NCBI RefSeq assembly: GCF_003991155.1
Contig: NZ_CP031293.1
Length of the DNA stretch: 64,000 nt
Reading direction: 5' to 3' (one strand)
Source of the DNA: Escherichia coli
GTDB lineage: Bacteria > Pseudomonadota > Gammaproteobacteria > Enterobacterales > Enterobacteriaceae
The notes beneath the pieces are model-generated. The model saw only the letters and a program-made list of their open reading frames with translations. It ran no database searches and was not told the DNA's origin. Below, in pieces: positions 18,114 to 47,304 of this stretch. Made by a program: the position numbers and the translations under genes. Position 1 is the stretch's first letter. Each line of letters opens with the position of its first letter.

Positions 18114-18258
18114 TCTTCTCAGCCCGGCGGCGGCGTCGCCGGGCTAAATCATTCACATCATCAATTTCAGCCTCGCTTTCATTCGAAATATAATTTGTGC
18201 TCTGCGTCACATTGTTATTACACTGTTACGGTTTCATTTTCGAGCCAGGAGCACACCT

Positions 18259-31152: not shown

Positions 31153-31190
31153 ATCCATCGCTGATGGTGCAGAACTTTAGTACACGATAA

Positions 31191-31225
31191 AAGCGGCTTC
31201 CTGACAGGAGGCCGTTTTGTTTTGT
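31191..31225 (+). terminator. dps rho-independent terminator candidate
   Basis: Imperfect hairpin cggcttcctg-ac-aggaggccg followed by ttttgtttt. Confidence 0.6.
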
Positions 31226-31383
31226 AGCCCGCCTCAACGCACTTATTTAGTGCATCCATCTGCTATCACCAGCTGGTTAAGTAAATTTTTTGTATCCACA
31301 TCATCACACAATCGTTACATAAAGATTGTTTTTTCATCAGGTTTTACGCTAAATAATCACTGTGTTGAGTGCACAATTTTAGC

Positions 31384-31412
31384 GCACCAGTTTGGTGCCC
31401 CAGAATGGTGCA
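31384..31412. promoter_or_regulatory. Tandem NtrC (NRI) enhancer-like sites upstream of glnH
   Basis: GCACCAgtttGGTGC and overlapping TGCCCCagaaTGGTGCA resemble the NtrC consensus TGCACCA-N3-TGGTGCA. Confidence 0.5.
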
Positions 31413-31485
31413 TCTTCAGGGTATTGCCCTATAAATCGTGCATCACGTTTTTGCCGCATCTCGAAAAATCAATGAGTTGCAAAAC

Positions 31486-31502
31486 TGGCACGATTTTTTC
31501 AT
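31486..31502 (+). promoter_or_regulatory. Sigma-54 promoter candidate (glnHp2): TGGCAC-N5-TTTCA
   Basis: -24 TGGCAC element with a -12-like element 5 bp downstream, about 55 bp upstream of the glnH ATG. Confidence 0.5.
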
Positions 31503-31540
31503 ATATGTGAATGTCACGCAGGGGATCGTCCCGTGGATAG

Positions 31541-32302
<762 letters not shown>

Positions 32303-32334
32303 TAACGCTACGCCTGTAAGGCGCACTGGCAGTT

Positions 32335-32380
32335 CCCTCTCCCCTCTGGGGAGAGGATTAGGGTGAGGGGCGCAAACCCG
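32335..32380. repeat. Structured GC-rich intergenic element between glnH and glnP (hairpin ctctcccctctggggagag plus gggtgaggggcg)
   Basis: Inverted repeat read directly; resembles recurring E. coli intergenic repeat motifs, but the class is not assigned. Confidence 0.4.
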
Positions 32381-32440
32381 CTCCGGGGCCATTAATTACC
32401 CTGAATTTGATTATTTACACCACGGTAACAGGAACAACAT

Positions 32441-33100
32441 ATGCAGTTTGACTGGAGTGCCATCTGGCCTGCCATTCCGCTTCTGATTGAAGGTGCCAAA
32501 ATGACCCTGTGGATCTCGGTCCTCGGTCTGGCTGGCGGCCTGGTGATCGGATTGCTGGCAGGTTTTGCACGCACCTTCGGTGGTTGGATAGCCAACCACG
32601 TCGCGCTGGTCTTTATTGAAGTGATCCGCGGCACACCTATCGTCGTCCAGGTGATGTTTATCTATTTCGCCCTGCCGATGGCGTTTAACGACTTACGCAT
32701 CGACCCGTTTACTGCGGCGGTGGTCACCATCATGATCAACTCCGGCGCGTACATTGCGGAAATCACGCGTGGTGCGGTGCTGTCTATTCACAAAGGTTTT
32801 CGTGAAGCAGGACTGGCGCTCGGTCTTTCACGTTGGGAAACCATTCGCTACGTCATTTTACCGCTGGCACTGCGTCGTATGCTGCCACCGCTGGGTAACC
32901 AGTGGATCATCAGCATTAAAGACACCTCGCTGTTTATTGTTATCGGCGTGGCGGAACTGACCCGTCAGGGGCAAGAAATTATTGCCGGTAACTTCCGCGC
33001 CCTTGAGATCTGGAGCGCCGTGGCGGTGTTCTATCTGATTATTACCCTGGTGCTGAGCTTTATTCTGCGTCGTCTGGAAAGAAGGATGAAAATCCTGTGA
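32441..33100 (+). CDS. glnP: Glutamine ABC transporter permease GlnP
   Basis: 219-aa ORF; polar amino-acid ABC permease. Confidence 0.93.
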
Positions 33101-33819
33101 TTGAATTTAAAAACGTCTCCAAGCATTTTGGTCCAACCCAGGTGCTGCACAATATCGATTTGAACATTGCTCAGGGCGAAGTCGTGGTGATTATCGGGCC
33201 GTCCGGTTCCGGTAAATCGACCCTGCTGCGCTGCATCAACAAACTGGAAGAAATCACTTCCGGCGATCTGATTGTCGATGGCCTGAAGGTTAACGATCCG
33301 AAAGTTGACGAGCGCCTGATTCGCCAGGAAGCAGGTATGGTGTTCCAGCAGTTTTACCTCTTCCCGCATCTGACGGCGCTGGAAAACGTCATGTTTGGTC
33401 CGCTACGCGTGCGTGGCGCGAACAAAGAAGAGGCGGAAAAACTGGCGCGTGAGCTGCTGGCGAAAGTCGGTCTGGCAGAACGTGCACATCACTACCCTTC
33501 CGAACTTTCTGGTGGTCAACAGCAGCGTGTGGCGATCGCACGCGCGCTGGCGGTGAAGCCGAAAATGATGCTGTTTGATGAACCGACTTCCGCTCTTGAC
33601 CCGGAACTGCGCCATGAAGTGCTGAAGGTTATGCAGGATCTGGCTGAAGAAGGGATGACGATGGTGATCGTGACACACGAAATCGGTTTTGCCGAGAAAG
33701 TAGCTTCGCGCCTGATCTTTATCGACAAAGGCCGGATTGCGGAAGATGGCGATCCGCAGGTGTTGATCAAGAACCCACCGAGCCAGCGCTTGCAGGAATT
33801 TTTGCAGCACGTCTCTTAA
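33097..33819 (+). CDS. glnQ: Glutamine ABC transporter ATP-binding protein GlnQ
   Basis: 240-aa ORF with Walker [10 protein letters not shown]; overlaps the glnP stop. Confidence 0.93.
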
Positions 33820-33827
33820 CTTCTCAG

Positions 33828-33850
33828 CCTCCCTTTCCCCGAAAGGGAGG
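33828..33850 (+). terminator. Hairpin after glnQ (cctcccttt-ccccg-aaagggagg), weak U-tract
   Basis: Read directly. Confidence 0.35.
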
Positions 33851-33934
33851 CACACCAGATTCCTCTCATTTAAAATCGCTCCTCCCCCAGCATCTATACT
33901 TATCTTTTTGCTCTGTTTTCTCACTGGAGGAGTC

Positions 33935-36160
33935 ATGCGGTGGATCCTGTTCATCCTCTTCTGCCTGCTGGGCGCACCTGCCCACGCGGTATCCATACCC
34001 GGCGTTACAACCACAACGACAACGGACTCAACGACTGAACCGGCCCCGGAACCGGATATCGAACAAAAAAAAGCGGCCTATGGCGCACTGGCGGATGTGC
34101 TGGATAATGACACCTCGCGTAAAGAGTTGATCGACCAGTTGCGCACCGTCGCCGCGACGCCCCCGGCAGAACCCGTACCGAAGATCGTGCCGCCGACGCT
34201 GGTTGAAGAGCAAACCGTGCTGCAAAAGGTCACCGAAGTCAGCCGCCATTATGGTGAAGCCCTTTCCGCCCGCTTCGGGCAACTTTATCGCAATATCACC
34301 GGCTCCCCGCATAAGCCGTTTAATCCACAAACCTTCAGCAATGCGTTGACCCATTTTTCAATGTTAGCGGTATTAGTGTTTGGTTTTTACTGGCTGATTC
34401 GCCTGTGCGCACTTCCGCTGTATCGCAAAATGGGCCAGTGGGCGCGGCAAAAAAATCGTGAGCGCAATAACTGGTTGCAGCTTCCGGCGATGATTATCGG
34501 GGCGTTTATTATCGACCTTCTGTTACTGGCACTGACATTATTTGTCGGTCAGGTTTTAAGCGACAACCTGAATGCGGGCAGTCGCACCATCGCTTTCCAA
34601 CAAAGTTTGTTTCTCAACGCCTTTGCCCTGATTGAATTTTTCAAAGCCGTACTACGCCTGATTTTTTGCCCAAACGTGGCGGAACTGCGCCCGTTCACGA
34701 TTCATGACGAGACCGCCCGTTACTGGAGTCGTCGCCTGAGCTGGTTAAGCAGCCTGATTGGCTATGGTCTGATTGTGGCTGTGCCGATTATCTCTAATCA
34801 GGTGAATGTACAGATAGGTGCGCTGGCGAACGTCATCATTATGCTGTGCATGACGGTCTGGGCGCTGTACCTGATCTTTCGTAATAAAAAAGAGATTACC
34901 CAGCATTTGCTCAACTTCGCGGAGCATTCGCTGGCCTTTTTCAGCCTGTTTATCCGCGCCTTTGCGCTGGTGTGGCACTGGCTGGCAAGCGCCTATTTTA
35001 TCGTGCTGTTTTTCTTTTCGTTGTTCGATCCGGGCAACAGCCTGAAATTTATGATGGGTGCAACGGTGCGCAGCCTGGCGATTATTGGTATCGCAGCATT
35101 TGTTTCCGGTATGTTTTCCCGCTGGCTGGCGAAAACCATCACCCTCTCGCCACATACTCAGCGTAACTATCCCGAGCTGCAAAAACGGCTGAATGGATGG
35201 CTTTCGGCGGCACTGAAAACAGCGCGTATTCTGACAGTCTGCGTGGCGGTAATGCTGCTGTTGAGCGCATGGGGATTGTTCGATTTCTGGAACTGGCTGC
35301 AAAACGGCGCGGGGCAGAAAACCGTAGATATCCTGATCCGTATCGCACTCATTCTTTTCTTCTCGGCGGTTGGCTGGACAGTGCTCGCCAGTTTGATCGA
35401 AAACCGGCTGGCTTCGGATATTCATGGCCGCCCGCTACCCAGCGCCCGTACGCGTACCCTGCTGACGCTGTTTCGTAACGCGCTGGCGGTGATTATCAGT
35501 ACCATCACCATCATGATTGTGTTGTCGGAAATCGGCGTTAATATCGCGCCATTGCTGGCAGGTGCCGGGGCATTAGGTCTGGCTATCTCGTTTGGTTCGC
35601 AAACGCTGGTGAAAGATATTATCACCGGGGTATTTATTCAGTTTGAAAACGGCATGAACACTGGAGATTTGGTGACTATCGGGCCGTTGACCGGCACTGT
35701 GGAACGGATGTCGATTCGCTCCGTGGGCGTGCGTCAGGATACCGGGGCGTATCACATCATTCCGTGGTCTTCGATAACTACCTTTGCTAACTTCGTCCGC
35801 GGCATTGGTTCGGTGGTGGCAAATTACGATGTTGATCGCCATGAAGATGCTGATAAAGCCAATCAGGCACTGAAAGATGCGGTAGCGGAATTAATGGAAA
35901 ACGAAGAAATTCGCGGGCTGATTATTGGTGAACCGAATTTTGCCGGGATTGTCGGCTTAAGCAATACCGCGTTTACACTGCGTGTTTCGTTCACCACGCT
36001 GCCACTCAAACAGTGGACGGTCCGCTTTGCCCTCGACAGCCAGGTGAAAAAACATTTCGACCTGGCGGGCGTTCGCGCGCCAGTGCAGACTTATCAGGTG
36101 CTGCCTGCTCCGGGCGCGACCCCGGCTGAACCGTTGCCGCCGGGGGAACCAACGCTTTAA
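33935..36160 (+). CDS. ybiO: Mechanosensitive channel YbiO (MscS family), start at MRWILFIL
   Basis: About 741 aa with signal-like N-terminus, multiple TM helices and an MscS-like C-terminal domain. Confidence 0.88.
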
Positions 36161-47148: not shown

Positions 47149-47304
47149 AATGCGCTAACCTCTTTGTATACGGCATGCAATTTATAATTAAAGATAGCGC
47201 AATTAATAATAAATTGCAGCACCTTAATCGTAAATTGCCCAGGATAAAATTGCGGTAGAAAGAGATTTGTTGCGAATATGCCGGGCATCGCCCGGCATAA
47301 AAGA

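Follow-up and report, generated by a model that had tools for sequence, protein, structure and literature searches.

The glutamine transport operon of Escherichia coli poses a question at its glnH-glnP spacer: what is the GC-rich element located there, and what does it do to the message of the genes on either side? We analyzed it in a window of 64,000 nucleotides of DNA, the plus strand of which carries the dps-glnHPQ-ybiO region, its glnHPQ genes in agreement with the K-12 annotation (b0811-b0809). The open reading frame list and the RefSeq annotation of the identical K-12 locus place glnH, encoding the periplasmic glutamine-binding protein, at 31556-32302, the permease gene glnP at 32441-33100 and, 3' of the latter, glnQ at 33097-33819. 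These genes, as well as the spacer features described below, are all on the plus strand. The element lies inside the spacer of 138 nt that separates glnH from glnP. K-12 RefSeq annotates no feature in this spacer, repeats and REPs included, and a glnPQ promoter inside it is not indicated by any sigma-70-like site across 31300-34100. The initial annotation, which was made from the sequence alone, quoted two pieces of the element, ccctctcccctctggggagagg and gggtgaggggcgcaaacccgctccgggg. Both are present, at 32335-32356 and 32361-32388, respectively, and the end proposed for the element, 32380, truncates the second piece.

The repeat family of this element has been described as being of unknown role since 1992, and one of its names, PIT, is said to come from Hoyne and Maher. 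Judged by its sequence, it is a slightly degenerate copy of the motif named first BoxC, then PIT (potential intrastrand triplex) and now TMECO, with 23 copies tabulated in K-12 (Holder et al. 2015, PMC4666352). The core, CCCTCTCCCCTCTGGGGAGAGGATTAGGGTGAGGGG (32335-32370), is composed of the C block CCCTCTCCC, the G block GGGAGAGGA, a TTA loop, the G block GGGTGAGGG and a last G. It is identical in 34 of 36 positions to the type A consensus CCCTCGCCCCTCTGGGGAGAGGGTTAGGGTGAGGGG (PMC4666352 Table 1), type A being the commonest TMECO type (PMC4666352), and carries the TTA loop of this type. The two differences are G6T and G23A. The former removes an internal mismatch of the hairpin, so that the stem becomes perfect. 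As a result of the latter, the second G block reads GGGAGAGGA in both the window and K-12, and the strict TMECO pattern CCCTCNCCC-N3-6-GGGNGAGGG-N3-GGGNGAGGG does not match; hence the absence of this copy from the 23-copy K-12 table, where there is no entry near 847 kb (PMC4666352). Such a one-base degenerate state was described by Holder et al. for many loci (PMC4666352). When we compared it with 11 further copies from E. coli and 10 from Enterobacter and Leclercia, shared tails became apparent around the core, approximately gCGCACnGnaCGGTC on the left and AAcAGnCCnGCAC on the right, in which GCGCAC..CAGT and C.CA..CC.GC, respectively, are common to the adk, gntP, yihR and Enterobacter copies. 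About 14 nt on either side of the core belong to the repeat, yielding a unit at about 32321-32384 (left tail GCGCACTGGCAGTT, 36-nt core, right tail CGCAAACCCGCTCC), in line with the 56 bp given for BoxC in the older literature. The second piece quoted in the initial annotation consists of the third G block and the right tail of this same repeat and, thus, is not a separate element.

The suggestion that the element resembles recurring intergenic motifs of E. coli was correct, and the genome search proposed along with it returned further copies. A 53-nt query built on a sister copy and searched against 5426 complete E. coli genomes detected the family in 5425 of them, with a median of 19 places per genome (range 2-34) and 21 places in one K-12 MG1655 record. 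Nearly all of these places are chromosomal (95,714 of 95,783). Older counts for K-12 amount to about 33 BoxC copies when degenerate ones are included. The element itself, used as a query against the same 5,426 genomes, likewise matched several places per genome, the window containing a single copy of the repeat. All nine K-12 MG1655 copies that we inspected and one copy from SK1402 are intergenic. Among about 0.9 Mb of loci from 80 species, obtained by a GlnP scan with one genome per species, core copies were confined to Escherichia, Enterobacter and Leclercia, consistent with the published host range of TMECO, which includes E. coli/Shigella and Enterobacter, but not Salmonella (PMC4666352). 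Other identities were considered and rejected. A search of Rfam 15 at a permissive E-value gave no match at the gathering score; the only overlapping family, whalefall-1 (15.2 bits versus 37, E = 2.3), is a chance match. A REP identity was rejected because neither the palindrome GCCGGATG... nor the GCCCGGTGGCG...ACCGGGC of the relatives occurs in the E. coli spacer.

The survey also brought up several arrangements of BoxC elsewhere. Upstream of fabI, a BoxC copy (L003 5205-5240, minus strand) is accompanied by a degenerate inverted partner, ACCCTCTCCCTGAAAGAGCGAGGGGG (L003 5395-5420). In K-12, this partner lies in the ycjD-fabI spacer (NC_000913 ~1351394-1351419), where it overlaps the ycjD (DUF559) stop codon; the 23-copy table does not include it. 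A BoxC-like copy is conserved about 3.9 kb upstream of glnP in five Enterobacter/Leclercia loci (L053, L064, L067, L073 and L083, ~2070-2170, minus strand), whereas in one species an inverted pair of type A and type B copies is found just 3' of glnQ (L055 7385-7461). In the window itself, an antisense open reading frame of 166 aa (31892-32392, minus strand) starts within the BoxC unit (MAPERVCAPHPNPLPRGERE...) and continues backwards across glnH. This frame, which is almost certainly spurious, illustrates how BoxC copies can seed false gene calls with PLP.GER-like peptides.

Strong secondary structure had been claimed for both quoted pieces. The claim holds for the first, which forms hairpin 1 at 32336-32356: the 9-bp arms CCTCTCCCC/GGGGAGAGG are a perfect inverted repeat around a 3-nt loop (RNA dG of -18.3 kcal/mol). 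It does not hold for the second, which is weak, is not conserved and has a polymorphic 5' arm: hairpin 2 (32367-32384), made of the end of the core and the right tail of the repeat, contains 6 bp, one of them G-U, between 32367-32372 and 32379-32384 (GGGGCG/CGCTCC). Taken as a whole, the 63-nt stretch does not fold significantly better than its own shuffles (z = -1.5). The fold z-scores against shuffles are modest (-1.5 and -2.3) because GC-rich shuffles fold too, and the count of perfect inverted repeats is a more useful chance test for hairpin 1. Three perfect GC-rich 9-bp inverted repeats are present in the 64-kb window, against a mean of 0.33 and a maximum of 2 in 100 dinucleotide shuffles. 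The other two, at 18121-18145 (AGCCCGGCG, 7-nt loop) and 47278-47298 (ATGCCGGGC, 3-nt loop), are probably terminators or REP-type hairpins. Downstream of the repeat lies a stretch specific to the E. coli lineage, GGGGCCATTAATTACCCTGAA (32385-32405), which is missing in the orthologous spacers of other species. Within it, TTACCCTGA is complementary to TTAGGGTGA of the BoxC core (32358-32366), and a 9-bp long-range stem is predicted. This stem is followed by AUUUGAUUAUUU and has a terminator-like look. However, the predicted composite of the stem (32358-32404) and a U-rich tail was discarded as a candidate, since no RNA 3' end is found after it in two public data sets.

Public transcript data provide an answer to the Term-seq check that had been proposed for a glnH-only RNA. 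Instead of uniform coverage across glnH and glnP, 3' ends are found just after hairpin 1. Term-seq in several conditions places an end at K-12 position 847200 on the minus strand (Adams et al. 2021, PMC7815308), with scores of 30332 and 130459, versus 89018 and 681605 for the dps terminator (PMC7815308), so that they reach between about one-fifth and one-third of the values of this neighbour. TRS data (Supplementary Data 2 and 3, PMC10687069) contain two termini, 847199 (R 0.93) and 847196 (R 0.78), both of which reach significance in every replicate and are classified for glnH as 'alternative primary in transcription unit' (PMC10687069). The three positions correspond to 32360, 32361 and 32364 of the window, 4-8 nt past the last paired base of hairpin 1, and neither the Term-seq nor the TRS tables list another 3' end in the spacer. 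Furthermore, SMRT-Cappable-seq reports a unit of b0811 alone from the transcription start site 848198, labelled 'ShorterEnd' relative to the glnHPQ operon of RegulonDB. Hairpin 1 is not an intrinsic terminator, as there is no T run within 0-2 nt of the GC-rich hairpin; the stem runs into ATTAGGGTG, and a terminator scan found no plus-strand site at 32336-32370.

The neighbourhood contains further RNA ends. A strong 'orphan' Term-seq 3' end maps to about 31503 (K-12 848057, minus strand), 53 nt upstream of the glnH start codon and at the sigma-54-like sequence TGGCACGATTTTTTCAT (31486-31502). Transcripts that start at the distal promoter, 848198, may end prematurely here. The strongest 3' end of the neighbourhood, 848340, is at the intrinsic terminator of dps (31190-31225). 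Sub-threshold Rfam matches to ctRNA_p42d (24.5 bits) and STnc70 (20.3 bits) at this terminator reflect only the resemblance of a hairpin with a U-tract.

Sister copies of BoxC show how transcription behaves at the repeat. At adk, gntP and tusA, BoxC is read through and the RNA ends at the next hairpin downstream, namely, at an intrinsic terminator for adk (497941), past a REP for gntP (4549783) and at 3608646 for tusA. If no other strong hairpin comes after BoxC, 3' ends follow it by 4-17 nt (mostly 4-12), in both orientations. Such ends are found for pstA (3908485), which is also within an ABC operon, hemB (388660 and 388647), tldD (3390499) and frlR (3504903), and the aaeR end (3390541) belongs to the same BoxC copy as that of tldD, on the opposite strand. 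In total, six of the nine BoxC-flanking genes with a listed 3' terminus end at the BoxC hairpin and three at a hairpin further downstream. Dar and Sorek (2018), in the account given in PMC6061677, described stable stem-loops without U tracts that have steady-state 3' ends immediately after them and protect the RNA from PNPase and RNase II, which they arrest after termination farther downstream. The pattern of BoxC, in which the last hairpin carries the end and earlier ones are read through, matches this class, and the glnH-glnP copy displays its features: a stem of -18.3 kcal/mol with the mapped ends just past it and no U tract.

Collectively, these observations suggest that the BoxC hairpin probably acts as a REP-like roadblock to 3' exonucleases, which preserves glnH mRNA independently of glnPQ. 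According to this model, RNA polymerase would transcribe through the BoxC element, and the glnHPQ transcript would be ended or cut farther downstream. A candidate for the cut is RNase E acting in the AU-rich glnP leader, possibly with the help of GlnZ and Hfq; Rho-dependent termination would be the alternative. Exonucleases trimming the RNA in the 3'-to-5' direction would then be arrested by the 9-bp GC hairpin, leaving a stable glnH-only mRNA with its end 4-8 nt past the stem. The glnH message would outlast that of glnPQ, decay directed at glnP would be kept out of glnH, and the outcome would help the binding protein to exceed the membrane subunits. We infer two points here: that the 3' end arises by trimming and not by termination at the hairpin, and that the protein ratio is affected. 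The former is favoured because there is no T-run, the terminator scan is silent, sister copies are read through, ends occur at BoxC in either orientation, the hairpin resembles the stem-loops of Dar and Sorek, and reporter tests were negative. Of the two roles proposed in the initial annotation, RNA stability with a bearing on the ratio of the proteins fits the glnH-only unit and its 3' ends, whereas an attenuator in the sense of a terminator is not supported.

The last 35 nt of the spacer, the leader of glnP (32406-32440, TTTGATTATTTACACCACGGTAACAGGAACAACAT), comprise the Shine-Dalgarno sequence and the published pairing region of the sRNA GlnZ, which according to two papers pairs beside the ribosome-binding site of glnP and represses this gene. 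In a comparison of 79 Enterobacteriaceae species, this is the only part of the spacer that is conserved, the remainder being lineage-specific. In Salmonella, glnP and glnQ dropped more than 4-fold upon a pulse of GlnZ and the affected genes named there do not include glnH, which weakly supports uncoupling of glnH from glnPQ. Some observations speak against the exonuclease roadblock. A distance of 4-8 nt past a hairpin is also where hairpin-driven termination would be expected to stop; an exonuclease arriving from the 3' side should encounter the weaker structure beyond hairpin 1 first, but the maps show no ends at that structure. In addition, earlier tests of PIT elements showed no effect on transcription, and Holder et al. 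found no general link of TMECO to gene regulation (PMC4666352).

The latter two results are also compatible with a different explanation, in which the repeat is a passenger without a selected role, the 3' end is a by-product that any stable hairpin would leave and glutamine transport is not meaningfully affected. The copies of the family are scattered, and the genes next to them show no functional bias; BoxC is missing in Salmonella and many relatives, where glnHPQ works regardless; and the glnH-glnP copy shows drift in its third G block and in hairpin 2. Among the sequences compared, from eight strains of E. coli and the cryptic-clade genome L007, the third G block and the 5' arm of hairpin 2 are polymorphic: some strains have G to A changes and O157:H7 a 1-nt deletion. 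By contrast, the stems of hairpin 1 are invariant across the nine Escherichia variants while the loop varies (TCT, TAT, GCC). Because the stems hardly vary, covariation is uninformative for the repeat family and within E. coli, leaving just the loop variation and one compensatory pair change in hairpin 2 of L007. The copy is also nearly fixed, being present in 5401 of 5426 complete E. coli genomes (presence was called when a genome covered at least 80% of a 141-nt spacer query), despite reports that BoxC loci are unusually unstable. In one genome without the copy, E. coli FORC_042 (L098 3157-4001), an IS26 copy stands in place of the final glnH codons, the entire spacer and glnP; the end of glnH is altered there and glnQ is left without its permease partner. 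The copy was already there before a lineage with only 92% identity to the window split off, since L007, a genome labelled E. coli E69 (92.3% identity), carries it with the canonical second block GGGAGAGGG. At the same slot, a REP-like hairpin instead of BoxC is found in SCPM-O-B-8794 (labelled E. coli, 92.3% identical), E. whittamii and E. albertii.

A local hairpin stabler than its own shuffles is present in all 79 orthologous spacers of Enterobacteriaceae. In 75 of them it reaches -15 kcal/mol or stronger, with a median of -22 versus -14.3 for the shuffles. The sequences of these hairpins are unrelated between species and are REP-like (E. albertii, E. whittamii, Citrobacter, Enterobacter, S. 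enterica arizonae), simple GC hairpins (for example, the plain CAGGGGCG...CGCCCCTG stem of Kosakonia, Cedecea and Buttiauxella) or BoxC. The universal presence of a hairpin could partly reflect the tendency of repeats to settle in spacers. The glnH-glnP spacer of Intestinirhabdus alba (L033) has expanded to 466 nt and is crowded with several unrelated GC hairpins, as if repeats had accumulated there. Nevertheless, near-fixation of the copy, invariant stems and the retention of some strong hairpin in every species argue against pure neutrality, and we consider it unlikely that the repeat is only a passenger.

Partial termination at the BoxC hairpin, with or without NusA, NusG or Rho, would leave glnPQ transcribed less than glnH and would place the 3' end at about the distance from a strong GC stem that is observed. 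The existence of glnH as a primary transcript of its own fits such an attenuator, and part of the literature ties REP/BIME elements to Rho-dependent attenuation. Moreover, in some species, for example, Kluyvera, Enterobacter and Atlantibacter, the hairpin at the same spot is directly followed by a T-rich tract and, from its sequence, looks like a true intra-operon terminator. Such a tract does not follow the hairpin in E. coli, where AUUAGGGUG comes after the stem. Copies of BoxC in the same orientation after adk and gntP are transcribed through, with RNA ends at downstream hairpins, and PIT elements had neither terminator nor promoter activity in earlier reporter tests, as these are summarised in PMC4666352. 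Partial termination is therefore, in our assessment, an improbable source of the glnH-only RNA.

Finally, it is highly doubtful that the element acts at the DNA level, through an intrastrand triplex of the G-rich strand that perturbs replication or recombination and causes local genome instability, as proposed for TMECO: a consensus oligonucleotide does form a stable triplex in vitro and TMECO loci vary more between strains than control loci, but no triplex was found in duplex DNA and in vivo DMS footprinting was negative (PMC4666352), the glnH-glnP locus is stable across 5401 genomes, RNA ends are associated with BoxC in both orientations, which a G-strand triplex leaves unexplained, and the second G block ending in A (G23A) together with the polymorphic third block weakens the register, which suggests a weaker triplex in this copy. 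Both a true attenuator and a role of a DNA triplex are thus less likely than the exonuclease roadblock.

The roadblock would give the operon a concrete physical basis for the presence of more GlnH than GlnPQ, and the hairpin may explain how GlnZ could lower glnP and glnQ more than glnH. More generally, and tentatively, the BoxC family might represent a second REP-like class of orientation-independent protectors of mRNA 3' ends, and the glnH-glnP spacer a slot in which hairpin modules (REP, BoxC, plain GC) are swapped. We propose that swapping occurs because any strong stem would uncouple the binding-protein mRNA from the sRNA-targeted permease mRNA. BoxC has taken the place of REP at a single conserved slot, a clean natural example of structure being kept while sequence is not. 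The BoxC family also gains a candidate role at the RNA level that can be tested, where earlier work, devoted mainly to DNA triplexes and termination in reporters, came up empty. The signal was already contained in public 3'-end tables, as 'orphan' or 'alternative primary in TU' ends, without being tied to the repeat. The repeat family itself has been known since the 1990s and the proposed job is of a well-known kind, so that a specialist in bacterial mRNA decay would find nothing surprising here. Modestly new are the degenerate copy absent from the latest catalogue, the coincidence of BoxC copies with mapped RNA 3' ends at several loci, and the filling of one spacer slot with different hairpin modules in different lineages.

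The element can be compared with four known systems. With BoxC/PIT/TMECO it shares the 34/36 core, the type A loop, the tails, the intergenic site, the number of about 20 copies per genome and the host range. It departs from this family in failing the strict pattern (GGGAGAGGA in place of GGGNGAGGG), in the hairpin without the internal mismatch that most type A copies have, and in the stability of its locus, TMECO loci being variable. REP/BIME elements are found between binding-protein and permease genes of ABC transporter operons, as in malE-malF and hisJ-hisQ, and are reported to have been described in such operons by Newbury et al. in 1987. The position in the same kind of operon and a stable hairpin without a U tract, just past which the mRNA of the upstream gene ends, are the same in both cases, and REP-like hairpins fill exactly this spacer in the relatives of E. 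coli listed above. However, BoxC has no sequence similarity to REP, no REP is annotated at the K-12 site, and we know of no link between BoxC and a REP-associated transposase (RAYT). Intrinsic terminators and attenuators likewise have a GC-rich hairpin and an RNA end a few nucleotides after it; unlike these, BoxC has no U tract and its sister copies let transcription pass. Although the BoxC hairpin of glnH-glnP is located inside the operon and not at its end, it shares with the protective stem-loops that Dar and Sorek (PMC6061677) described for Rho-terminated transcripts a stable stem-loop, a precise 3' end directly downstream and the absence of a uridine tract.
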